Below are positions 6,199-63,761 of a DNA stretch of 64,000 nucleotides, in pieces. Below the pieces are notes generated by a model. The model was given only the letters and a program-made list of their open reading frames with translations, was not told where the DNA came from and made no database searches. The translations under genes and the position numbers were made by a program. Position 1 is the stretch's first letter. Each line of letters opens with the position of its first letter. Source of the stretch: an uncultured Candidatus Saccharibacteria bacterium (GTDB taxonomy: Bacteria > Patescibacteriota > Dojkabacteria > J137); contig CAZSKK010000002.1 of NCBI GenBank assembly GCA_964607415.1, positions 224,585 to 288,584 of the forward strand, read 5' to 3'.

Positions 6199-7941
6199 TT
6201 ACATACGCTCTACCGTCTCAATTCCAAGAAGATTTAAACCATTTTTTAGAACAATACTGGTAGCTTGAGTTAGGGCAAGGCGCGCTTGTCTATCCTGTTC
6301 TGTTTCTGCTTCTATTACTCTACATTCGCTGTAAAATCTGTTAAAACTTTCTGCAAGTTCGAAAAGATAAGTGCAAATTATGTGTGGTGTAATCTCAGTA
6401 CCAGCTTTAAAAGCAGTTTCTTTATATTCATCCATTTTCTTTAATAAATATAGTTCAGGTTCAGAATTTAAAACTGCATCTAAGTTGCCTGGAACTTTAG
6501 CTTCCTCAATTTCAGCCTTTCTTAAAATTGATTTGCATCTTGCATAAGAGTAAAGAACATACGGTCCCGTGAAACCATCAAAGCTTAAAAATTGCTCCGG
6601 ATCATAACTAAAATCCTTATGAAACTCATGTGATAAAACCAAGAACTTTAGCCCAGCCATTGCAACTGCACTAGATATCAACTCCTTTTCGTCTTCATCA
6701 TATTCCGCAATTTCATCAATTTTTTTTCTTGCTACATTTTTTATTTCATTCAAAATGTCCATGCCTTTAACTGACTCTCCCATTCTTGAACTGAATTTTT
6801 TACCTCCTCTTAACATCCAACCAAATGGTATGTGTTCATACCTGCCAGTAAACTTAGAATCTATAAGTTCCAAAACCTTAATTACGGCTTTAAAATAGTC
6901 TTTTTGTTCTACAGAAGTTGTTACTATTCCTTTAAATAAATCTGGATATTCTTCAAACTTTTTATAAGCAAGGGCTAAATCTTTCGCAGAATAGGTTGGA
7001 TTTCCGTCTTTAGTTAAGAAAACCCAATTATTTAAGCCAATTTTTTCACCTCTATAAATTATTGCACCCTCACTTTCTTCGAATATTTTTCCGCTGTATT
7101 TTTGAACTATTTTTACACCCTCCTCGTAAACCTCACTTTCGGGATATTGTCTATCGTAAGTTATTCCTAAAGTTTTCCAAACTGCATCTTGATGCAGAAT
7201 GCTGTATTCTCTAAGTTTTTTGTATGTTTGCGTTTCTTTGTTATCAACTTTCAAATATATATCCTTATTTATATGTCTTATTTCTTCTTCCGCTTTTTTA
7301 TTTTCTTTAAAAGCATTTGATCCTTTTACATAGCAGTTATCAATAAGTTTCATTCTTTCATGAGCTTCCATTGAATCAAAATTTTCTGGAACTTCAGTAT
7401 GTAAAAAACCCCAAGTGCATTTGGCGACATGCATTCCAACATCTCCAAAGTAATTGGCTTTTATAACATTGTATCCAAGGTTTTCGTGAAGTTTAACCAT
7501 AGAAAGCCCAGACACTGCACTTTTTAAATGACCAATGTGAAATGCTTTGTGAGTATTGGGCTGGCCAAATTCAATCATTATTTGTTTATCTTGTCCCAAG
7601 TTAGATTTACCAAAGTTTTGATCTTGAAGGATTTCTTTAACTATTGATTTAGAATGAATTCTCTTGTCTTTAAAATTCAAAAAACCACTTATAGATGAAG
7701 CCTCTTCAGTAATCGAATTAATATCTAGAAAAGAATTAACTTTTTCGGAAAGTTCTTTTGCAACTTCATTTGGAGATTTTTGCAGAATACTTGCTAATTT
7801 AAAAGTTACAAAAGTCCAGTCACCATGTTCACTGTTTTTGGGTCTTTCTAGAATAACAGGATCTTCGTAGTCAAGAGCATATAAATCTTTTATAGAAGAC
7901 AAAATTAGCCTTCGTTTTTCTTGAACAGATTTATCTTCCAT
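6199..7941 (-). CDS. argS: Arginine--tRNA ligase
   Basis: Class I HIGH motif (AFHIGHLKS), 580 aa, ArgRS N-terminal add-on domain and typical C-terminal ...ETVERM. Confidence 0.95.
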   Translation of the reverse strand: MEDKSVQEKRRLILSSIKDLYALDYEDPVILERPKNSEHGDWTFVTFKLASILQKSPNEVAKELSEKVNSFLDINSITEEASSISGFLNFKDKRIHSKSIVKEILQDQNFGKSNLGQDKQIMIEFGQPNTHKAFHIGHLKSAVSGLSMVKLHENLGYNVIKANYFGDVGMHVAKCTWGFLHTEVPENFDSMEAHERMKLIDNCYVKGSNAFKENKKAEEEIRHINKDIYLKVDNKETQTYKKLREYSILHQDAVWKTLGITYDRQYPESEVYEEGVKIVQKYSGKIFEESEGAIIYRGEKIGLNNWVFLTKDGNPTYSAKDLALAYKKFEEYPDLFKGIVTTSVEQKDYFKAVIKVLELIDSKFTGRYEHIPFGWMLRGGKKFSSRMGESVKGMDILNEIKNVARKKIDEIAEYDEDEKELISSAVAMAGLKFLVLSHEFHKDFSYDPEQFLSFDGFTGPYVLYSYARCKSILRKAEIEEAKVPGNLDAVLNSEPELYLLKKMDEYKETAFKAGTEITPHIICTYLFELAESFNRFYSECRVIEAETEQDRQARLALTQATSIVLKNGLNLLGIETVERM

Positions 7942-21540: not shown

Positions 21541-21571
21541 ATATGAACAAGTTTTAACACCTGCCTTTCCA

Positions 21572-21603
21572 GAGAATGCATATTATGCATTTCGAATGCA
21601 GCT
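21572..21603. repeat. Family A dispersed element copy 1 (GAGAATGCATATTATGCATTtCGAATGCAGCT)
   Basis: One of 4 near-identical copies; contains inverted repeat GAATGCATA-T-TATGCATTC; shares 50 or more extra nt of similarity with copy 2. Confidence 0.8.
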
Positions 21604-21706
21604 AGCTTAGCTCCATTCAACAGCACAATGGCTGTCTCGAGTCGATTTCTGAACTTTGTTTCAGAATCGGATGAGGCAAATTAAATAATTTTTCTACTCA
21701 ACAGCA

Positions 21707-39117: not shown

Positions 39118-39163
39118 GCCTCGCCCCGGCCTCCCAAAGCTTGGCCACCCTCTCCTTTAGGAT
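39118..39163. repeat. Family B GC-rich palindromic element copy (abuts family A copy 2)
   Basis: gcctcGccccGGCCTcccAAAGCTTGGCCacCCTCTCCTttAGGAtga, parallels tsaD-internal element gcctcAcccaCCAGCCTAAAGGCTGG..CCTCTCCTgccAGGAGaagg. Confidence 0.65.
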
Positions 39164-39194
39164 GAGAATGCATATTATGCATTCGAACGGAGCT
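39164..39194. repeat. Family A element copy 2
   Basis: GAGAATGCATATTATGCATTCGAACGGAGCT; downstream about 50 nt similar to copy 1 (..AGCTA-NNN-TAGCT..AGCACAATG..). Confidence 0.8.
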
Positions 39195-39251
39195 AAATTA
39201 GCTGCACTCAAAAGCACAATGTGTTTTTTCGGGTGAGACGACCTCAGATTC

Positions 39252-42336: not shown

Positions 42337-43569
42337 ATGAATAAATTAATTACCACCTTGGCAATAGACACATCTTGTGATGAAACTTCTGTAGCTGTAG
42401 TTAGAAACTTTACAGTTCTTTCAAACGTACTTCCTACTCAAATTGAATTTCACAAAAAATACGGTGGAGTAATGCCATCAGTTGCAAAATTAGCTCATAA
42501 AGAAAGAATTGATAATGTTGTGATTGAAGCTATCAAAAAAGCAAAAGTTGATTTTTCAGACATAGATGCAATTGCAGTAACAATTGGGCCAGGCCTTGCA
42601 ATTGCTTTGGAAGTTGGAATTGAAAAAGCAAAAGAACTAGCAAGCAAATACAATAAGCCTTTGATTACAGTTAATCACATGGAAGGACACCTGCTTTCGG
42701 CATTCGCCGAAAGGAAAGAAGCCTCACCCACCAGCCTAAAGGCTGGTCCCCCCTCTCCTGCCAGGAGAAGGGTTGAGGGAGAAGCTTCCTTTCCAAATCT
42801 GGGAATGCTGGTTTCCGGAAATCATACTGAAATTATTTTAATTAAAAACTTTGGCGAATATCAAAAAATTGGCGAAACGCTTGATGATTCGTGTGGAGAA
42901 GCGTATGACAAATGCGGCAGAATGTTGGGCCTTGGTTATCCTGCAGGCCCTGTTATTTCCGAATTTGCAAAACAAAACCGAAAAAATATGGAGCTTGGAA
43001 TTGCAAATATAAATAATTCGGTACATGCTTGGGCAAAAAATAAAAAAACTAAAGCCTACTACTCTCTTCCAGTTAGCATGGCAAAGTCTAATGATTTGAA
43101 CTTTAGCTATTCTGGATTAAAAACCGCATTTAAACAGCTTGTAACAAATGTAAGTGGTCAAAATATTTCGTACGAAGATCAACTTTCAGGTTCAATTAAT
43201 TTAAATAAAGAACAAATTATGGACCTTTGTGTAATTTTTGAACATGCAGCGTTAAGCCAGATTTCAATAAAGTTATCCAAGGCAATAAAACAATATAAAC
43301 CAAATGAAGTGTGGCTTGGTGGAGGTGTTGTTGCCAGCACAAGATTAAGATCAATTGTTAGAAGTTTATGCAAAGATAATAACGTGATTTTAAGGGTTGC
43401 AAATACAAAAAAACTTTTTGGTGATAATGCTGCAATGATTGGTGTAGCAGCGAATACCAGAATTATGCTTCAAGATTCAAGAATTAAGAATTTTGAACAT
43501 TCTCCGGCATACGGGATTTTTTTAAAAGACTTTCATTTAGTGGATAGAGATCCAAATCTTTCGCTTTAG
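42337..43569 (+). CDS. tsaD: tRNA N6-adenosine threonylcarbamoyltransferase TsaD, with about 21-aa in-frame insertion
   Basis: TLAIDTSCDETSVAVV, VNHMEGHLLS, VSGNHT, GYPAGP; 410 aa versus about 340 typical. Confidence 0.9.
   Translation: MNKLITTLAIDTSCDETSVAVVRNFTVLSNVLPTQIEFHKKYGGVMPSVAKLAHKERIDNVVIEAIKKAKVDFSDIDAIAVTIGPGLAIALEVGIEKAKELASKYNKPLITVNHMEGHLLSAFAERKEASPTSLKAGPPSPARRRVEGEASFPNLGMLVSGNHTEIILIKNFGEYQKIGETLDDSCGEAYDKCGRMLGLGYPAGPVISEFAKQNRKNMELGIANINNSVHAWAKNKKTKAYYSLPVSMAKSNDLNFSYSGLKTAFKQLVTNVSGQNISYEDQLSGSINLNKEQIMDLCVIFEHAALSQISIKLSKAIKQYKPNEVWLGGGVVASTRLRSIVRSLCKDNNVILRVANTKKLFGDNAAMIGVAANTRIMLQDSRIKNFEHSPAYGIFLKDFHLVDRDPNLSL
42721..42783. repeat. Family B GC-rich nested-hairpin element inserted in frame inside tsaD (encodes ASPTSLKAGPPSPARRRVEGE)
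   Basis: CCAGCC-TAAA-GGCTGG and CCTCTCCTG/CAGGAGAAGG hairpins, outer CCTCACCC/GGGTTGAGG, flanked by ggaaagaagc/gcttcctttcc; GC-rich island in AT-rich gene. Confidence 0.7.
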
Positions 43570-43729: not shown

Positions 43730-44098
43730 ATGCAAGATTTTAGAAAACTTAAAGTATGGGAAAAATCCCATATTTTGACCAAAGAAATATACGAAGTGAC
43801 AAAATGCTTTCCTAAACACGAAATGTTTAGCTTAACTAATCAGGTTAGAAGGTCCGCTAGCTCAGTACCTACAAATATAGCTGAAGGTTCGAATAGATCA
43901 AGTGATAAGGAATTTATTAGATTTATAAATATTGCAATAGGTTCAATTACGGAGACTGAATATTTGATTTTACTTTCTAATGAGCTGAATTATATTAATG
44001 AAATTGAAAGATTTCATCTTATAGAAATGATAGTTGAAGTTAGAAAAATGCTAGTCAGTTTGAAAAATAATTTACTTATTAAATCTCGAAGCTCGTAG
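43730..44098 (+). CDS. Four-helix-bundle protein of the 23S rRNA intervening-sequence type
   Basis: KLKVWEKSHILTKEIYEVTKCFPK...SLTNQVRRSASSVPTNIAEG pattern typical of IVS-encoded 4HB proteins. Confidence 0.7.
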   Translation: MQDFRKLKVWEKSHILTKEIYEVTKCFPKHEMFSLTNQVRRSASSVPTNIAEGSNRSSDKEFIRFINIAIGSITETEYLILLSNELNYINEIERFHLIEMIVEVRKMLVSLKNNLLIKSRSS

Positions 44099-45863: not shown

Positions 45864-47678
45864 ATGGCTGAAATTCAGGAAGAAAAAAAAGCTTCTAAAA
45901 ACCTTATAGGTAATACGATTTGGGTTCTTAAGTTGAACTTAAAACACGCACGCTTCTTATTTATCACAAGATTAGCGGGCTTTATAAATAATCAATGCTA
46001 CCCAATTGCAAGGTCATTTGTGATGGGGTTGATAATTGATTGGGGTATTAAGTATACTGCCGACGATGCGCACGATTCTAAGTATATCTACTACTCAATG
46101 TTAGCCTTTGGCGCTTTGTACTTTGTTAATGGGACTATTAATGTACTAAATAACTATGGTGAAAATGTTGGAAGATTTAAACTGAATTATCTAATTCCTG
46201 AAACACTCCTATATAGAAAACTAAATGCTCTGAGCAATGCAGACCTAGAAAGCCCAAAAGTTCAGAATATGGTTAGCAGATATAGAGACAATAGATATAT
46301 CATAAGTAATTTGAGCCAAAATTTGTTAAGAATCACTGCAATTCTGGTTGTCTTTAGTATAACTGCGGTACCACTATTTACAGTGCTTCCAATAGTAACA
46401 ATTCTGCTAATTTTTACTTCAATACCAGGATTGTTTGCAAATAAAAGAGCGATAAACAAACTTTGGGATTTGGATAAGGAGACTACAGTAGAGAACAGGA
46501 AAGCCTGGTCAATGGTTTATCAGATTTCTTCACCTGAAACATTAAAAGAAGTTAGGCTGGTAGGTGCTTTTGACTACATAAAAAAATTCTTTGAAGATTA
46601 TATAGAACTTTTTAACAATAAGCGTAAAGAGATTTATACAGTATGGTCAGTTTTTGATGTAATAAGTACCATATTGACTGGAGGCACCATTCTATTTGGT
46701 ATTTATCAATTGATTGAGCTTGTTAATACAGGAAATATTACCATTGGGCAAGTTACATTTTTCATCGGAGCTTTGCTAAATCTTGGGGGAAATATTGACA
46801 GCTTTTCAGCCCAAATTACTGACATATCAGCTTCTAGCATAAGACTAACAGAGATTAGAGAATTGTTGGAAATGCCCGAAGAGGATGATGAGAATAAAAA
46901 AGATATTGCTCTTCTGTCTGAACCACCATCTTTAGAAATAAAAGATTTAACATTTTCATATCCTGGCGCAAAAGCAAAAGTTCTTAAAAACTTAAACCTT
47001 AAAATTAAACCAGGTGAAAAGATTGCAATCGTTGGCGAAAACGGAGCTGGTAAAACAACATTAATAAAACTTTTAACAAAGATATATCCAGTTTCCAAAG
47101 GAGAAATTTTAATTAATGATGAAAATTTAAATGGGATTTCAACAAGCTCATGGAATAATAGTCTTGGAGTTCTTTTTCAAGACTATAATACTTATCCAGA
47201 TTTGACTGCTTTTGAAAATATAGCAATAGGAAGAATGACTGATGAAATAGACTACGAAAAAATTACAGATGCAGCCAAAAAGGCCGATGCACATGACTTT
47301 ATAATGGCATATGAAAATAACTACTCTCAAATTTTAAGTGAAAAATATGAAGGTGGAATTAGACCTAGTGGAGGCCAATGGCAAAAGATTTCTATTGCAA
47401 GATTCTTTTACAGAAATGCTCCAATTCTAATTCTGGACGAGCCTACTGCTTCAATTGATGCTGTATCGGAAGCAAACATATTTAATAGAATTTATAAATT
47501 TATTGAAAACAAAACTGTAATTATTGTTTCTCACAGATTTTCTACTGTACGAAATGCAGATAGGATTATTGTTTTGGATAAAGGAGAAATTGTTGAAGAT
47601 GGATCGCATGAGGAGCTAATGAAAAACAAAGGCAAATATTACGAGGCATTTACATTACAGGCAAAGGGATATAATTGA
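45864..47678 (+). CDS. ABC transporter, fused permease/ATP-binding protein (exporter type)
   Basis: Six N-terminal TM helices; GENGAGKTTL Walker A, PSGGQWQKISIARF signature, ILILDEPTASID. Confidence 0.85.
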   Translation: MAEIQEEKKASKNLIGNTIWVLKLNLKHARFLFITRLAGFINNQCYPIARSFVMGLIIDWGIKYTADDAHDSKYIYYSMLAFGALYFVNGTINVLNNYGENVGRFKLNYLIPETLLYRKLNALSNADLESPKVQNMVSRYRDNRYIISNLSQNLLRITAILVVFSITAVPLFTVLPIVTILLIFTSIPGLFANKRAINKLWDLDKETTVENRKAWSMVYQISSPETLKEVRLVGAFDYIKKFFEDYIELFNNKRKEIYTVWSVFDVISTILTGGTILFGIYQLIELVNTGNITIGQVTFFIGALLNLGGNIDSFSAQITDISASSIRLTEIRELLEMPEEDDENKKDIALLSEPPSLEIKDLTFSYPGAKAKVLKNLNLKIKPGEKIAIVGENGAGKTTLIKLLTKIYPVSKGEILINDENLNGISTSSWNNSLGVLFQDYNTYPDLTAFENIAIGRMTDEIDYEKITDAAKKADAHDFIMAYENNYSQILSEKYEGGIRPSGGQWQKISIARFFYRNAPILILDEPTASIDAVSEANIFNRIYKFIENKTVIIVSHRFSTVRNADRIIVLDKGEIVEDGSHEELMKNKGKYYEAFTLQAKGYN

Positions 47679-47808
47679 GGTGAAGAGCTTAAGAGCTAAT
47701 GAGGTTTTCAGATTTCCTCTCCCTTAGGGAGAGGACTAAGGTGAGGGCTTAAGAGTCGATGTTTTTTATAACCTCACCCTCCCCTCTCCTTAAATGGAGA
47801 GGGATTTG
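47677..47808. repeat. Family B GC-rich elements, two tandem units
   Basis: Unit 1 GGTGAAGAGCTTAAGAG...CCTCTCCC-TTA-GGGAGAGG; unit 2 GGTGAGGGCTTAAGAG...CCTCACCC..CCCTCTCC-TTAAAT-GGAGAGGG. Confidence 0.75.
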
Positions 47809-50165: not shown

Positions 50166-50217
50166 AACAAGAACATTGAAACTTAAATGCTTTTTAACTT
50201 TCTAAAACAAACAACCC

Positions 50218-50248
50218 GAGAATGCATATTATGTATTCGAGTGCAGCT
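50218..50248. repeat. Family A element copy 3
   Basis: GAGAATGCATATTATGtATTCGAGTGCAGCT. Confidence 0.8.
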
Positions 50249-50271
50249 CATAAATAGAACCACGTTAAAAA

Positions 50272-54992: not shown

Positions 54993-55300
54993 TGGTATAA
55001 TTAACAAAACGTAGAAGGAGCAAAGTACATTTTTAAGGTGACAAAAGAGATTTCGTGTTAGCTGAAAACGAAACGTACTTAAAAATCGAAACTACACTCC
55101 AGAGAAAAGAGCAGAACAGCTAAAGGGCTGTAGAGGTAAAGAGCATGCTCTATCACTCTTAACCTCTATACCTCTAAAGCTCAGTAAACCTCTTCGGGTA
55201 AGCCCGTTATTGCTGTCATCAAGAGTCTAGTATCTTCACTAGAAATTGAGGTGGTACCGCTGAGAAATCAGTCCTCATAAATATAAATTCGAAATCAAAA
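54993..55300 (+). promoter_or_regulatory. T-box-like leader upstream of tyrS, with extended -10 promoter TGgTATAAT at 54993-55001
   Basis: AAATTGAGGTGGTACCGCTGAG (55243-55264) matches T-box consensus AAUUAGGGUGGUACCGCG; UGGU bulge would pair the ACCA end of a tRNA with discriminator A (assumed for tRNA-Tyr); UAC (Tyr) codon followed by A at 55025-55028 in stem-I-like region. Confidence 0.5.
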
Positions 55301-55463: not shown

Positions 55464-56585
55464 ATGACAACTCAAGAAAAAGTTGAACTAATAAAATCCA
55501 TTGCAAAAAACGGTGGGGAAATAGTTGGCGAAGAAGAACTAGCAAAAATCTTAGATTCAGGCGAAAAACTATACACATACGATGGATTTGAACCGTCTGG
55601 GCAAATGCATATTGCGCAAGGAATTATTAGGGCTATCAACACAAACAAAATGATTGAAGCAGGATTTACTTTTAGAATGTGGGTTGCAGATTGGTTCGGA
55701 TATATTAACAATAAAATGGGTGGTGATTTAGAAAAGATAAAAACTGTTGGAAATTATTTCATTGAAATTTGGAGAGCTTCTGGAATGGATCTTGATAACG
55801 TTGAATTTTTGTGGACTAGCGATTACACGGGAGATACAAATTACTGGTCAACTGTAATGAAAGTTGCAAAAGCGCTAACTTTAAATAGGGCTATAAAAAC
55901 AACTGAAATTATGGGTCGAAGCGAATCTGATAATCTAAGTGCTGCTCAAATAATTTATCCATGTATGCAAATTGCAGATATTTTTTACGTTATGAAGTGT
56001 CAGGTAACTCAACTTGGTTTAGATCAAAGAAAAGCAAACGTGATAGCACGTGAGGTTGGTCCAGAACTTGGTTACTGGAAACCTGTGATTGTAAGTCACG
56101 GAATGTTACAAGGATTGGGTACTCCTCTACCAAAAGATATTGATGCAACAGAACGAGCTATCTCTATGAAAATGAGTAAGTCTAAACCAGATACAGCTAT
56201 ATTTATGACTGATTCAAGGGAAGAAATTCAAAGAAAAATCACAAAAGCGTTTTGCCCTGAGGGTCAAGTAGAAGAAAACCCTGTTTTAGATTACTGTAAG
56301 CAAATTATTTTTGAAGCTAAATGGCTAAAAAGAGAAACTCCTTTACTTACCAATGGAACGTTTGAAGTAAAAAGACCAGAAAAATTTGGGGGTGATATTT
56401 CTTACGGAAGTTATGAAGAACTTGAGAAGGATTATGCCGGAAAAAAATTATTCCCACTTGATTTAAAAAATGCAGTTATTGAATATCTGGATCAATTAGT
56501 GGCTCCAGTTAGATCTCATTTTGAAACTGATCCAAAGGCAAAGGCACTTTTGGAAGAAGTAAAAAGTTATCAGGTAACAAGATAA
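55464..56585 (+). CDS. tyrS: Tyrosine--tRNA ligase, archaeal/eukaryotic type
   Basis: YDGFEPSGQMHIAQG, KMSKSKP, and C-terminal KAFCPEGQVEENP...KRPEKFGGDISYGSYEELE..LFPLDLKNAV collinear with Methanocaldococcus TyrRS. Confidence 0.9.
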   Translation: MTTQEKVELIKSIAKNGGEIVGEEELAKILDSGEKLYTYDGFEPSGQMHIAQGIIRAINTNKMIEAGFTFRMWVADWFGYINNKMGGDLEKIKTVGNYFIEIWRASGMDLDNVEFLWTSDYTGDTNYWSTVMKVAKALTLNRAIKTTEIMGRSESDNLSAAQIIYPCMQIADIFYVMKCQVTQLGLDQRKANVIAREVGPELGYWKPVIVSHGMLQGLGTPLPKDIDATERAISMKMSKSKPDTAIFMTDSREEIQRKITKAFCPEGQVEENPVLDYCKQIIFEAKWLKRETPLLTNGTFEVKRPEKFGGDISYGSYEELEKDYAGKKLFPLDLKNAVIEYLDQLVAPVRSHFETDPKAKALLEEVKSYQVTR

Positions 56586-59654: not shown

Positions 59655-60218
59655 ATGGGAAATTTGCACACTCATCAAAAAAGGTTTTACGTTGATCAGT
59701 TAGTTTACTTTGTTACAATAAAAACCCTTAATAATTTTCCTTATTTTAAATACAATTTTCTTGCTGATTTATTTATAGCTGAGCTTACACTTTGTCAAGA
59801 GATTAAAAATTTTGAACTTTATGCGTTTAATGTTCTCTACGATCATGTTCATATTTTGTTAAAACCATCCAAAGAATCAAATATTTCGGTAATAATAAAG
59901 TCTCTAAAAGAAAATTTTTCCCGTGATGCGAACAGGATTATTTTAAAAAAGCCAATTGAAGCCGCGGCGTCGACGTCGCGGCTTCACATCGATAAAAATA
60001 TAAATGAAGTGATCAAACAAAAACAGCTTTTTATGCCTAAGTTTGCATGGCAAAAATCATTTCATGATCATTACATTCGGAACTCTAAAGATTTGAAAAC
60101 CCGTTATAATTATACGGTTTTTAATCATTTGAAGCATTCAGAAGATAGGGCTTACACATCAGACTATAAATTTACATCTCTAAATTATTTTGAAATAATT
60201 GACGAAGCGTATTTTTAG
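59655..60218 (+). CDS. REP-associated tyrosine transposase (RAYT) / IS200-like Y1 HuH transposase homolog
   Basis: HuH motif LYDHVHILL; C-terminal WQKSFHDHYIRNSKDLKTRYNYTVFNHLKH (WQ..F.DH.IR..........Y...NP-type catalytic Tyr region); 187 aa; no terminal IS structure seen. Confidence 0.65.
   Translation: MGNLHTHQKRFYVDQLVYFVTIKTLNNFPYFKYNFLADLFIAELTLCQEIKNFELYAFNVLYDHVHILLKPSKESNISVIIKSLKENFSRDANRIILKKPIEAAASTSRLHIDKNINEVIKQKQLFMPKFAWQKSFHDHYIRNSKDLKTRYNYTVFNHLKHSEDRAYTSDYKFTSLNYFEIIDEAYF
59958..59985. repeat. Family C GC-rich palindrome GAAGCCGCGGCG-TCGA-CGTCGCGGCTTC inside the RAYT ORF (encodes EAAASTSRLH)
   Basis: 11/12 complementary arms; GC island in AT-rich gene; related to 56606-56634. 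Confidence 0.7.
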
Positions 60219-61348: not shown

Positions 61349-62110
61349 TAGTTTAATTGAATCTTCTAATTTAAATTCTCCCACTTTTGTACGTAAGATT
61401 GCAAGCGTTATTGCTTTATTATCGAGTTTTTTACCGATGTCATTAACCAAGGCTCTTATATACGTTCCACTAGAAACATTAGCTTTAAATCTAAAAATTT
61501 TAAAGTTGGCTTCTTTTGATTTTTCAAAAAATTTTTCCCAGTCTTCTATAATTTCTTCTTGCCTAAAATCACCAGTAACGTTTTGAATTCGATTAATAAT
61601 TTGTTCTTTTAACTCAAATTTTGAAATTTCAAATTCTTTAACAAACTCAATTTTGTGAACTTTAACAAACCTTTTAGGAACAGTTATATTGGAAATTTGG
61701 TTACTTTTTGCCCACCAGTAAAGTGGCCTGCCATTAACTAATGTTGATGAATAAATAGGTAGGGTTTGAAGAATTTCGCCCTCAAAGCTTATTACGATCT
61801 GCTCAATCTCTTTTTTAGAAACGATTTTAGATTTCTCGCCGAATTCAATTTCACCAAGCACATCAAATGTATCACTCTTTACACCGAACATCAGATCAAA
61901 CTCATACTCTTTATCAAGTTCTTGATAGTGGTCTCTATTTTTGCACTCCTCATCTACAAGAATTAATAAAACTCCTTCAGCCATAGGGTCTAGCCTTCCC
62001 GCATACGCAAGCTTTGAATCTTTATATTCTGGAAATTTCTTTTTAAAAAGATTCAAAGCTTCTAATGGCGTTTTGGATATTGGTTTGTAGATATTCACTA
62101 CTTTGTCCAT
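61340..62110 (-). CDS. truB: tRNA pseudouridine(55) synthase TruB (start set at ATG 62108-62110, MDKVVNIYKP, rather than TTG at 62128)
   Basis: AGRLDPMAEGVLLIL catalytic Asp motif. Confidence 0.85.
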   Translation of the reverse strand: MDKVVNIYKPISKTPLEALNLFKKKFPEYKDSKLAYAGRLDPMAEGVLLILVDEECKNRDHYQELDKEYEFDLMFGVKSDTFDVLGEIEFGEKSKIVSKKEIEQIVISFEGEILQTLPIYSSTLVNGRPLYWWAKSNQISNITVPKRFVKVHKIEFVKEFEISKFELKEQIINRIQNVTGDFRQEEIIEDWEKFFEKSKEANFKIFRFKANVSSGTYIRALVNDIGKKLDNKAITLAILRTKVGEFKLEDSIKLDE

Positions 62111-62130
62111 AGGTTTATTATAGCGCAAAA

Positions 62131-62191
62131 ACCCCTCTTCTATTCTCCCCTTTAATCAAAGGGGAGATGTCGAACGTAGTGAGACAGAGGG
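62131..62191. repeat. Family B GC-rich nested hairpin (CCCTCT...CTCCCCTTT-AATC-AAAGGGGAG...AGAGGG)
   Basis: Perfect 9-bp inner hairpin 62145-62166 enclosed by CCCTCT/AGAGGG; between RIO-kinase stop and truB start. Confidence 0.7.
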
Positions 62192-62192
62192 A

Positions 62193-62930
62193 TTAGTTAA
62201 AAGGTACATGCCTAGTAAGAGACAAAGGCGTTGTTCCATGCATAAAATTATCTTTAATCTCCAAAAGCTCTTTGTAATCAATATCAATAAACTTTGAAAA
62301 GAATTTGTAAATATTATCCAAATCTTTTTGTAGTTTTTCTGATGCAAATGGGTTTTTGAAATCTAACATTTGTGGAAAATCAATTGCATAGGCAGAATTC
62401 TCCCACCAAAGGATATTGTATTCAGAAAAATCTCCGTGCACGTAGCCAAGTTTTGTAAGAGCACGTAAAAATTCAAGTGTGTCTAGATAAGCTTTTTTAA
62501 GCTGACTTTTTGATAGGTTTAAATCTACAAGTCTTAAAGCTGGAGCACTTTCTTCTCCTAAAAACTCCATTAAAATTGCATCTTCAATAAAGTCATAAAC
62601 TTTGGGAACTTGAAGATTATATTCATTTAGTTTTTTTAAAATAGAGTACTCTCTATAAGTCCAAAAACTCCGGGTAAACATTTTGCCTTTACGTGTTTTC
62701 TTACGCATTGCCCTTGTAGTAGGTGTATCTTTCATTACATTAAGATCCAGATATTCAAACCTTGATGAATACTTTTGATTTACTTTATAGATTTTTAAGG
62801 CGAGCAACAATGAATCCATTTTTACTAAATGGACTTCTGCTTCTTTTCCTGTTTTTAATTGTCTTATATATTCAAGGTTGTAATTTTTTTCTTTGAACTG
62901 ATTTAGAACCAACGATAAGTTGTTTAGCAT
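62193..62930 (-). CDS. RIO-type atypical serine protein kinase
   Basis: GKEAEVHLV...LALKIYKV (ATP-binding), YVHGDFSEYNILW (catalytic loop), AIDFPQ (metal-binding) parallel RIO1 motifs. Confidence 0.65.
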   Translation of the reverse strand: MLNNLSLVLNQFKEKNYNLEYIRQLKTGKEAEVHLVKMDSLLLALKIYKVNQKYSSRFEYLDLNVMKDTPTTRAMRKKTRKGKMFTRSFWTYREYSILKKLNEYNLQVPKVYDFIEDAILMEFLGEESAPALRLVDLNLSKSQLKKAYLDTLEFLRALTKLGYVHGDFSEYNILWWENSAYAIDFPQMLDFKNPFASEKLQKDLDNIYKFFSKFIDIDYKELLEIKDNFMHGTTPLSLTRHVPFN

Positions 62931-62986
62931 AGGCGTGAAAATTTAGAATTATAAGTAAAAATATGACTCTTTCCCCTCTTGGGAGC

Positions 62987-63017
62987 GAGAATACATATTA
63001 TGCATTCGAGTGCAGCT
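62987..63017. repeat. Family A element copy 4
   Basis: GAGAATaCATATTATGCATTCGAGTGCAGCT; preceded by GC-rich CCCCTCTTGGGAG. Confidence 0.8.
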
Positions 63018-63368
63018 TAATACATTTATGCTTTTTAAGGGTAGTGGCATACAAAACTAAATTTCAGCCACCCTCCTTAATTCTCCCTCAAGGGAGGAGA
63101 AAATTACCAAGAACTAGAAATTGATAGAAAATATTAAGAGGTTCAAACTAGAAGTTTCTAATTACCACCTCGATTTGTGTTGAGTTTTGTTCTGTCATAA
63201 TACAAAGTGGTAAAAAGTAAAGATAGATAATATTAGCAGAATTATGATTCAAGATTCAAGAATAATTTTCAATTCTCAAGTATCAATTTCCAGTAAAGAT
63301 TTTGTGAAAATTGATAATTTCTGCTGGAGTGATAGAATATATTTAGTACTATTTTTTAACCTAGCAAT

Positions 63369-63761
63369 ATGTCTGCAACATTAACTGCACCGTACAAAGA
63401 TTTAGGCCCAAATGGTGATTATCCAATAGAAGCAAACTATGGTATTAGAATCTACGATAATAAGGGAGAAATTATTCCAGGAATAGGCGAAACAAAAGCA
63501 ACATTAAAAGGTGGCTTAAGAACAAATCATATAGGAATTGTACCTTTGCTTGATGGAAATAAAGAAAACATAGGTAATGCAGAAGTTATTAAGATTATTA
63601 TTGCAAAGCCCGAGAATATGGAATTAAAAGATATAAATGCGTGTGGTTTTCAAAGCATTGATGAAGCAATAGCTTATGTTTCTACAGAGCATAAAGAAGA
63701 ATTTGACCGTGATGGAGTAATGACGGTTTATTATTTTAAAGTAATAGAAAAGAATAAGTGA
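63369..63761 (+). CDS. Hypothetical protein
   Basis: 130 aa. Confidence 0.35.
   Translation: MSATLTAPYKDLGPNGDYPIEANYGIRIYDNKGEIIPGIGETKATLKGGLRTNHIGIVPLLDGNKENIGNAEVIKIIIAKPENMELKDINACGFQSIDEAIAYVSTEHKEEFDRDGVMTVYYFKVIEKNK

Follow-up and report, generated by a model that had tools for sequence, protein, structure and literature searches.

The G/C-rich repeats of Escherichia coli named BoxC, PIT element, or TMECO are the closest described counterparts of the hairpin elements examined here, which are scattered over a 64-kb stretch (referred to as the window, the whole of the DNA analyzed) of a Candidatus Dojkabacteria genome. Descriptions of such repeats go back to the 1990s (Bachellier, 1990s; Hoyne and Maher, 2000, 2002), and the parts of this literature drawn on here offer neither a function nor a mechanism of spread. 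The motif, formerly BoxC and also called PIT element, was formulated as the TMECO pattern 5′-CCCTCNCCC N3-6 GGGNGAGGG N3 GGGNGAGGG (Holder et al., 2015, PMC4666352). It has a C-rich arm of ∼9 nt, tolerates at most one mismatched triad, and in its E. coli form adopts a stable class II purine-motif triplex in vitro, as judged by circular dichroism and nuclear magnetic resonance (PMC4666352). E. coli K-12 carries 23 copies, all of them intergenic, and at five sites two motifs lie in inverted configuration; position relative to genes is inconsistent, and the surroundings are unusually variable between strains (PMC4666352).

The Dojkabacteria, to which the window is assigned by its TsaD homologues, belong to the Patescibacteria, also termed the candidate phyla radiation (CPR), and the window has a GC content of 32% overall (range 28-36% throughout). 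Each intact element in it comprises, in order, a pyrimidine arm (Y), a short loop, the purine arm complementary to it (R), a second loop, and a third arm (H), which is rich in G and a mirror image of R except that T stands in place of some A residues. Because of this third arm, the elements are placed in the BoxC/PIT/TMECO class, and they are likely to be copies of that pan-bacterial G/C-rich intrastrand triplex motif repeat. In the structure envisaged, the Y and R arms would form a Watson-Crick hairpin, and the third arm would occupy its major groove by reverse-Hoogsteen pairing in single-stranded DNA; the loop preceding the third arm would be either ∼3 nt long or a small hairpin of variable sequence. 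The motif cannot be a product of base composition, given its presence in a Patescibacteria genome that is both minimal and AT-rich.

Three-arm Motifs in the Window

The window was scanned with an ITxF-like three-arm search for GC-rich Y-loop-R-loop-mirror(R) arrangements, with arms of at least 8 nt, at most one mismatch, and the purine-motif rules G·G:C, A·A:T, and T·A:T. Five motif clusters were returned, at 47715-47747 (+), 47771-47803 (−), 62129-62166 (−), 62145-62195 (+), and 42722-42771 (−). These coincide with sites listed in a preliminary description of the same DNA and fall into three loci: 47715-47803, 62129-62195, and 42722-42779 inside tsaD. The sole addition under relaxed settings was 42752-42779 (+), on the opposite strand of the tsaD copy. 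Dinucleotide-preserving shuffles of the window yielded no three-arm motif (0 in 200), and the window scan found no class I triplex topology. Triad mismatches numbered zero at 47715-47747, 47771-47803, and 62129-62167 and one at 42722-42771 and 62145-62195, and the third arms follow the antiparallel reverse-Hoogsteen rule. A mirror third arm was present for every GC-rich homopurine/homopyrimidine hairpin of the window (4/4). In total, the 64 kb hold three intact loci, each with the motif on both strands, one disrupted locus (39.1 kb), and two decayed loci (62.97 and 63.07 kb).

Whole-window counts placed exact CCTCACCC at 42722 and 47772, exact CCCTCTCC at 39148, 42751, and 47782, and exact GGAGAGGG at 47796, all three being limited to element sites; GGTGAGG occurred at 47740. 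The GC-rich hairpins reported in the preliminary description were all present at the listed sites, and every element folded more stably than shuffled sequence (z of −3.1 to −5.1). That account was thus right about the hairpins themselves and overlooked the third arm, which is the defining feature. No match to Rfam at the gathering threshold was obtained at the elements, and an E-value threshold added just the sub-threshold match to Whalefall-1 that is described below.

The Inverted Pair at 47.7 kb

The features of this locus are as follows.

47715-47747 (+): triplex motif unit A, TCCTCTCCC-TTA-GGGAGAGGA-CTA-AGGTGAGGG; 0 mismatches in 9 triads, both loops 3 nt
47748-47770 (unstranded): 23-nt spacer between the inverted units
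47771-47803 (−): triplex motif unit B, inverted, CCCTCTCC-ATTTAA-GGAGAGGG-GA-GGGTGAGG; 8-nt arms, loops of 6 and 2 nt, 0 mismatches
47677-47696 and 47738-47757 (+): partial direct repeat of ∼18 nt (GAGGTGAAGAGCTTAAGAGC; AGGTGARGRGCTTAAGAG), third arm plus flank, read from the sequence

Unit A starts 37 nt past the stop codon of an ABC transporter gene (47676-78) and fits CCCTCNCCC-N3-6-GGGNGAGGG-N3-GGGNGAGGG, with one C:G·G triad changed to T:A·A coherently on all three arms. The arm-loop pattern of the BoxC/PIT/TMECO class was found in both units; the tsaD and 39-kb copies are a variant in which a hairpin replaces the 3-nt loop. At the E. coli hrpB-mrcB site, a stop codon, a (+) motif, a spacer of 16-18 nt, and a (−) motif follow one another in the same order as at 47715-47803. 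The 47.7-kb pair is therefore an inverted one and not the two tandem units at 47677-47808 that had been proposed. Similarly, GGTGAGGG and CCTCACCC, which had been taken for the outer arms of one unit, proved to be the third arms of two different units. The ∼18-nt direct repeat brackets the first hairpin, and its first copy (47677-47696) overlaps the ABC transporter stop codon.

Copies at 62.1 and 39.1 kb and Decayed Copies

Comparison was made with L005, a syntenic contig of a Dojkabacteria relative that shares 77-94% nucleotide identity with the window. The remaining intergenic copies are listed below.

62129-62167 (−): triplex motif with different arms, TCTCCCCTTT-GATT-AAAGGGGAGA-ATAGA-AGAGGGGTTT; 10/10 perfect triads
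62145-62195 (+): weaker motif on the opposite strand, its hairpin in common with 62129-62167; 1 mismatch, 20-nt second loop
39118-39162 (unstranded): left part of a disrupted motif, with GCCTCGCCCC, a hairpin GGCC..GGCC, and CCCTCTCC-TTTA-GGA
39163-39230 (+): nested copy of family A, an unrelated AT-rich palindromic repeat, 68 nt
39231-39240 (unstranded): right remnant of the disrupted motif, GGGTGAGACG, from alignment to L005
62967-62986 (unstranded): remnant of a decayed hairpin, CCCCTC-TT-GGGAG, adjoining a copy of family A; failed the three-arm scan
63068-63099 (unstranded): decayed motif, CCACCCTCC..TTCTCCCTC-AAG-GGAGGAGAA; failed the three-arm scan

The element described earlier as a shared one at 62131-62191 has the same architecture as the others, with a different sequence (TCTCCCCTTT / AAAGGGGAGA / AGAGGGGTTT). 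Because its arms are asymmetric, 62129-62167 can be recognized as a mirror repeat and not a direct one. It occupies the whole spacer between truB and the gene of a RIO-type kinase (PF01163) at 62193-62930 (−). Its third arm was considered as a Shine-Dalgarno sequence for truB, a role that was rejected since the spacing misfits the likely ATG start.

An intact element lies at the orthologous 39.1-kb site of L005, and the window copy is split there by the 68-nt family A repeat. The element known at 39118-39163 is present as noted, with its continuation at 39231-40 beyond the unrelated insertion. The two weaker fragments at 62967-62986 and 63068-63099 do contain hairpins, in a decayed state that fails the three-arm test.

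Family A is a second, AT-rich repeat family with three hairpins (GAGAATGCATATTATGCATTCGA.. AGCTAAATTAGCT.. AAAAGCACAATGTGYTTTT). Its copies lie at 21569-21642, ∼39163-39234, 50214-50251, and 62986-63017 of the window and at 9916-9990 of L005; one is within the 39.1-kb triplex motif, and two others adjoin triplex-type hairpins.

In-frame Copies in tsaD and Other Genes

One copy lies in frame within tsaD, which encodes an essential enzyme.

42713-42794 (+): in-frame tsaD insert, residues ∼126-152, containing motifs 42722-42771 (−) and 42752-42779 (+)

The insert reads, in order, CCTCACCC, a small hairpin ACCAGCC-TAAA-GGCTGGT, CCCCCCTCTCCT-GCC-AGGAGAAGGG, and TT-GAGGGAG, between the flanks GGAAAGAAGC and GCTTCCTTTCC, and the window's tsaD open reading frame (ORF) is uninterrupted despite it. 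In an AlphaFold model of the protein (predicted local distance difference test score (pLDDT) 83.6 and predicted template modeling score (pTM) 0.82 overall), pLDDT falls below 50 at residues 129-141, and the insert is predicted to occupy a disordered loop that links the HMEGH helix to the strand after it. The TsaD of L005, the closest homologue, has at this position an unrelated AT-rich loop of different length, and for this reason no empty site could be defined in tsaD.

In-frame TsaD motifs were also found in two further Dojkabacteria, in the same loop in L126 and in a different loop in L127. Two extra in-frame inserts of L005 TsaD (7114-7206 and 7658-7703) have no counterpart in the window protein; they are a GC-rich segment containing a CCGCAGCAGGCTGCGG hairpin and a run of AAG/GAA rich in lysine and glutamate. 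Repeat insertions seem to accumulate in the TsaD loops of Dojkabacteria. AT-rich Bacteroidota likewise hold in-frame copies, in HsdR, AlaS, a nitrilase, and LeuS. Four loci, from AT-rich Bacteroidota and other sources (L060, L088, L016, and L072), each carry a single in-frame motif, the reading frames being HsdR (SWI2/SNF2 ATPase), alanyl-tRNA synthetase, CN-hydrolase, and another long ORF, and the encoded peptides are of the type SPSPLGEGWGEG.

The strictly intergenic location of the K-12 copies is accordingly not shared by 42713-42794 or by the L126, L127, and Bacteroidota copies. Intergenic location is a property of the E. coli set and stands outside the structural definition of the class. 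A gene for a 23S rRNA intervening-sequence protein or bAvd-like four-helix bundle adjoins tsaD at 43730-44098 (+).

Shared Descent and Strain Comparison

The copies within the window match one another weakly in an all-against-all BLAST. It is the L005 copies that show shared descent. In L005, an element 84% identical to the tsaD insert over 64 nt lies in the spacer upstream of ApbE, and a unit 92% identical to 47713-47747 follows the L005 Mg-chelatase gene, beside two genes without counterpart there in the window. These copies, 84-92% identical at non-orthologous sites, bear out the proposal of a dispersed repeat family, and the alternative named by the preliminary description itself, that the elements are locus-unique with no shared descent, does not hold given L005 copies elsewhere.

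The presence or absence of elements differs between the window and L005. Variation from strain to strain was not seen: contigs from at least five samples were identical at 47.7, 62.1, and 63 kb. As same-species contigs are identical, the copies are fixed at strain level and differ only between species. Signs of local rearrangement near copies are anecdotal and comprise the nested insertion at 39 kb, the replaced tsaD loop, and a break in synteny beside an L005 copy.

The same evidence bears on a reading of the elements as independent, locally evolved GC-rich intrinsic terminators or mRNA stabilizers with no shared descent, a role also suggested in the preliminary description. Several elements do lie at gene ends, and all fold stably as RNA; the Watson-Crick hairpin of unit B (47782-47803, tail ATTTGAATTA) is the only terminator-like match among the window elements, and a weak one. 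The genome paper of Enterobacter sp. 638 presumed a role in termination for CCCTCTCCC..GGGAGAGGG repeats (PMC2869309). Against this, a U-rich tail is found in that one element only, no terminator match occurs in 61900-63500, and the hairpin-then-U-tract layout of an intrinsic terminator is otherwise not that of the elements. One copy lies inside tsaD, within an ORF, and one in a divergent promoter region. Termination would not require a conserved third arm, nor would it account for non-orthologous L005 copies that are 84-92% identical. The E. coli PIT elements, moreover, have neither promoter nor terminator activity according to work of Hoyne and Maher as cited in PMC4666352. We regard separate origins as terminators or stabilizers as highly improbable.

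Distribution and Flanking Sequences

Species-representative genomes were searched with the composite pattern CCTCACC-N0-25-CCTCTCC-N3-6-GGAGAGG, which was found at 120 loci or more. Among the matches listed are Planctomycetota, Cyanobacteria, Pseudomonas, Xanthomonas, Enterobacteriaceae, Acinetobacter, Bacteroidota, Chloroflexota, Verrucomicrobiota, Acidobacteriota, Bifidobacterium, Omnitrophica, and a Moraniibacterium; the pattern was also found in viral contigs, and the GC content of host loci ranged from 33% to 73%. The subtype represented by 47715-47747, with 25 specified bases among which is the loop CTA, was recovered from 85 metagenome contigs of 32-72% GC. Together with the copies in the window and L005, these occurrences show the motif to be repeated and dispersed in unrelated contexts.

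In 69 copies of this subtype with distinct flanks, T was present at position −1 in 91% and the GGG completing the third arm in 99-100%, and the flanks were unrelated beyond ∼3 nt. Target-site duplications were not detected in these 69 copies (flank repeat length of 1.41 observed vs 1.49 permuted), and no terminal inverted repeats extend beyond the motif; the suggested identity as miniature inverted-repeat transposable elements (MITEs) is thus not borne out.

Inverted pairs without target-site duplications are what HUH/Y1 transposition would be expected to leave, and the window does encode a homologue of the REP-associated tyrosine transposases (RAYTs) at 59655-60218 (+), matching NCBIfam NF047646 with 80.0 bits (cut-off, 80) and Pfam Y1_Tnp (PF01797) with 31.6 bits. 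If this RAYT mobilized the elements, they would be REPINs, the hairpin-forming doublets of repetitive extragenic palindromic (REP) sequences, as had been suggested. The gene, however, has a radical SAM gene and obg as close neighbors; its 51-nt upstream spacer contains no elements and its 3′ end overlaps obg, so that REP or REPIN copies flank it on neither side. Two homologues in other genomes had no elements within 6 kb, and the elements lack a REP-type head. The RAYT of E. coli goes with REP sequences and is not known to go with BoxC, and the family A repeat would be an equally good candidate partner for the window gene. Mobilization by this RAYT is considered very unlikely. The RAYT ORF contains in frame, at residues extra to the family profile, a near-perfect GC-rich palindrome, GAAGCCGCGGCGTCGACGTCGCGGCTTC (59958-59985), which is a different type of hairpin.

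Mirror Covariation of the Third Arm

An arm such as GGGAGAGGG cannot separate a mirror from a direct repeat because it is its own mirror image; asymmetric arms can. The fetched loci, 2.6 Mb in all, contained 161 perfect GC-rich Y/R hairpins with asymmetric purine arms, and the R arm was followed by a mirror third arm (at most one mismatch) in 79/161 and by a direct repeat in 30/161. Examples of asymmetric mirrors are GGGGAGAAGG..GGATGAGGGG, GGGGGAAGG..GGATGGGGG, and GAGAGGGGG..GGGGGTGAG, as well as the 62.1-kb copy of the window. Mirror symmetry is meaningless for templated copying or Watson-Crick folding. The T in GGGTGAGGG fits the purine motif (T·A:T), and its complement breaks the pyrimidine motif on the opposite strand. 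According to literature cited in PMC4666352, purine-motif triplexes are not formed in RNA; the constraint would therefore point to single-stranded DNA. Judged from arm sequences, the mirror covariation points to selection on the DNA triplex itself and not on an RNA hairpin or a G-quadruplex.

A G-quadruplex (G4) or hairpin switch regulating neighboring genes (Kaplan et al., 2016) was weighed against these data. The E. coli sequence GGGAGAGGG-TTA-GGGTGAGGG has four G3 tracts and gives G4 signatures in K+ (PMC5100583). In the window, the tracts at 47725-47747 are GGG, GG, GG, and GGG, and 62129-62167 has only two G4 runs. Since the window copies lack the four tracts of at least three G that define the HPGQ type of G-quadruplex, this reading fails for them; the same copies still obey the triplex rule, and a G4 would not require mirror covariation of the arms. 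We give a G4 switch almost no credence here.

The second spacer was 13-25 nt long in ∼14% of matches, and 38/46 such spacers folded better than shuffles into hairpins of differing sequence (GGCCTTCGGCC, GCGCCTTCGGCGC, GTCGGGAATACCTGAC, and others). In the window, this subclass comprises the tsaD copy, with ACCAGCC-TAAA-GGCTGGT, and the 39-kb copy, with GGCC..GGCC. This variant was invisible to the published search because the loops in that search were limited to 1-6 nt.

DUF559 Genes Bracketed by Inverted Motifs

Six-frame ORFs of 350 fetched loci were searched for DUF559, and a motif was counted if it lay 150 nt or less away. The search revealed 28 DUF559 domains, with a motif on at least one side in 27/28 and on both sides in 21/28; random placement within the same loci gave both-side flanking with a mean of 0.94 and a maximum of 4 (1000 trials). 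DUF559 and the motif are thus physically associated in other taxa. The polarity of the arrangement was constant. The 5′ motif has its purine strand in the sense orientation, and 2-9 nt separate the end of its third arm from the ATG or GTG, as would be the case for a Shine-Dalgarno sequence; the 3′ motif is inverted, 13-85 nt beyond the DUF559 domain. In Enterobacter YcjD homologues, the ORF runs into the 3′ motif, the first loop of which contains the stop codon. Many Enterobacter contigs terminate exactly at the motif past the DUF559 gene, a pattern suggestive of breaks in assembly at this repeat.

The gaps of adjacent motif pairs in the order (+) then (−) were bimodal, with 61 pairs at 0-60 nt, a class to which the pairs of the window and of E. 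coli belong, and 24 at 300-600 nt; only five pairs in the order (−) then (+) had gaps of 300-600 nt. At L051 6629-7083 (Cytophagales metagenome-assembled genome (MAG) JADBYQ010000091.1), inverted motifs bracket an in-frame DUF559 domain (PF04480, E = 3e-34) that is inserted in leucyl-tRNA synthetase (LeuS), between its catalytic and editing domains. A reverse test was started from E. coli YcjD homologues without selection for the motif. Motifs followed the gene in E. coli and in two Enterobacter species, and a GC-rich MAG had them on either side. The region past ycjD in E. coli K-12 (NC_000913.3 1351150-1351420; L350 11150-11420) contains a degenerate motif that includes the stop codon of the gene, a duplicated piece of its 3′ end, and one intact TMECO. 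YcjD matches Protein Data Bank entry 3HRL, an “endonuclease-like protein,” and is related to Vsr (PMC1189080). The gene is present in 3378/5426 complete E. coli genomes, where it occupies the site of a lost eef operon (PMC12817139).

These observations are best accommodated by the following model. In other taxa, inverted motif pairs would be the ends of a ∼0.5-kb cassette encoding the DUF559 (Vsr-like PD-(D/E)XK) endonuclease, and the nuclease, we infer, moves the motifs. Solo units and short “empty” pairs, 47715-47803 among them, would on this view derive from such cassettes by internal deletion or by mobilization in trans. The association suggests that the window copies are orphan ends of DUF559 cassettes; they would be non-coding units that persist at sites able to accommodate them, namely intergenic spacers and one disordered loop on the TsaD surface, and they may mark sites of local rearrangement. 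Any effect on RNA, such as that of a stable hairpin at a transcript 3′ end, would be secondary.

A broader proposal is put forward tentatively and with some doubt. BoxC/PIT motifs may be the structured ends of a domain-wide, unrecognized family of tiny selfish DUF559 cassettes, in which the 5′ third arm would double as a ribosome-binding site and the inverted 3′ motif would often supply the stop codon. Solo motifs and short pairs, including those of the Dojkabacterium and the 23 of K-12, would be MITE-like orphans, and the single-stranded DNA triplex would be the structure that the nuclease recognizes. In compact AT-rich genomes the units would colonize protein loops in frame (TsaD in three Dojkabacteria; LeuS, AlaS, and HsdR in Bacteroidota).

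Several findings weigh against these readings. There is no sign of recent movement in the window, whose copies are identical across strain contigs. Copies persist at orthologous sites across species, both at the 39.1-kb site in the window and L005 and in the group L140/L162/L163, which could mean a host function and not selfish spread. The window pair is itself no motif-DUF559-motif cassette, its spacer (47748-47770) being only 23 nt, and DUF559 was found neither in the window (E-value up to 10) nor in ∼110 kb of other Dojkabacteria loci; a local mobilizer is therefore unproven. No locus was found with a filled and an empty version of one motif pair, E. coli without ycjD carrying an eef efflux island, and motifs are also kept in E. 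coli genomes that lack ycjD. We know of no DUF559 protein with nuclease activity on these motifs. Finally, in vivo footprinting in E. coli saw no stable triplex (PMC4666352).

Some of these points would suit host-selected, non-mobile structural DNA elements (replication, recombination, “plasticity,” or translation-start modules) that arise or are kept by selection in each lineage. Persistence at orthologous sites, identity in all strain contigs, and a third arm at Shine-Dalgarno distance from DUF559 start codons are all compatible with such elements, and Holder et al. proposed an adaptive role in variability (PMC4666352). Yet at least 69 loci with the exact 25-nt core have unrelated flanks, presence or absence differs among close relatives, and copies occur in viral contigs and inside coding sequences; the absence of a consistent position relative to genes (PMC4666352) argues in the same direction. 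Retention by host selection alone is considered unlikely.

The DUF559 association makes the origin of the repeats testable, and the literature search found no paper linking DUF559 or ycjD to the repeats. If the link is causal, it would explain where the repeats come from and give a role to a widespread domain of unknown function. The window also contains a T-box leader at 55003-55279 (+) (Rfam, 99.5 bits), upstream of an ORF at 55464-56585.

Comparison with Known Systems

The window elements belong to a known class and are no new kind of element. They resemble BoxC/PIT/TMECO in the three-arm layout, in nearly identical arms (CCCTCTCCC / GGGAGAGGG / GGGTGAGGG), and in loop lengths, as well as in occurring as inverted pairs just past a stop codon and as dispersed multi-copy units, and perhaps also in neighborhoods that vary between relatives. 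They differ from the E. coli set in residing in a 32% GC Dojkabacteria genome, in a density of ∼1 locus per 20 kb vs 23 copies per 4.6 Mb in K-12, and in having an in-frame copy in an essential gene, so that the motif evidently tolerates translation within TsaD. Some window copies, unlike the published E. coli ones, have a hairpin in the second loop, and one has different arms (AAAGGGGAGA). What is new is the minimal AT-rich CPR host, the recurrent in-frame residence in TsaD, the second-loop-hairpin variant, the evidence from mirror covariation, and the DUF559 association.

With REP/REPIN-RAYT systems the elements share short GC-rich palindromes, often in inverted doublets, that lack target-site duplications and outnumber a single candidate enzyme gene. 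They differ in having no conserved REP-type head and a third arm without REP counterpart, and the gene associated with them elsewhere encodes DUF559 and not a Y1 transposase. MITEs such as Correia and ERIC are similarly small, non-coding, dispersed, and possibly non-autonomous derivatives of a gene-carrying element; the present units are only ∼33 nt long and have neither a target-site duplication nor a DDE transposase partner.

The Rickettsia palindromic elements, described by Ogata and colleagues in 2000, are reportedly ∼100-150 bp long, restricted to one lineage with an AT-rich reduced genome, and inserted in frame in genes, where they are translated as surface-loop peptides. Palindromic repeats with in-frame insertion in the proteins of an AT-rich reduced genome are thus common to both, whereas the sequences are unrelated and the Rickettsia elements are without triplex architecture. 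The Rfam family Whalefall-1 (RF01762) has a consensus of a CUCUCC/GGAGAG hairpin, ∼24 nt, and AGGGUGAGGAC, which is the layout of the second-loop-hairpin variant. Its model scored 17.3 bits at 47713-47748 of the window and 18.1 bits at 3920-3971 of L005, below the gathering score of 37, so the elements are not assigned to it; the resemblance suggests that Whalefall-1 may represent not an RNA but a DNA triplex motif.

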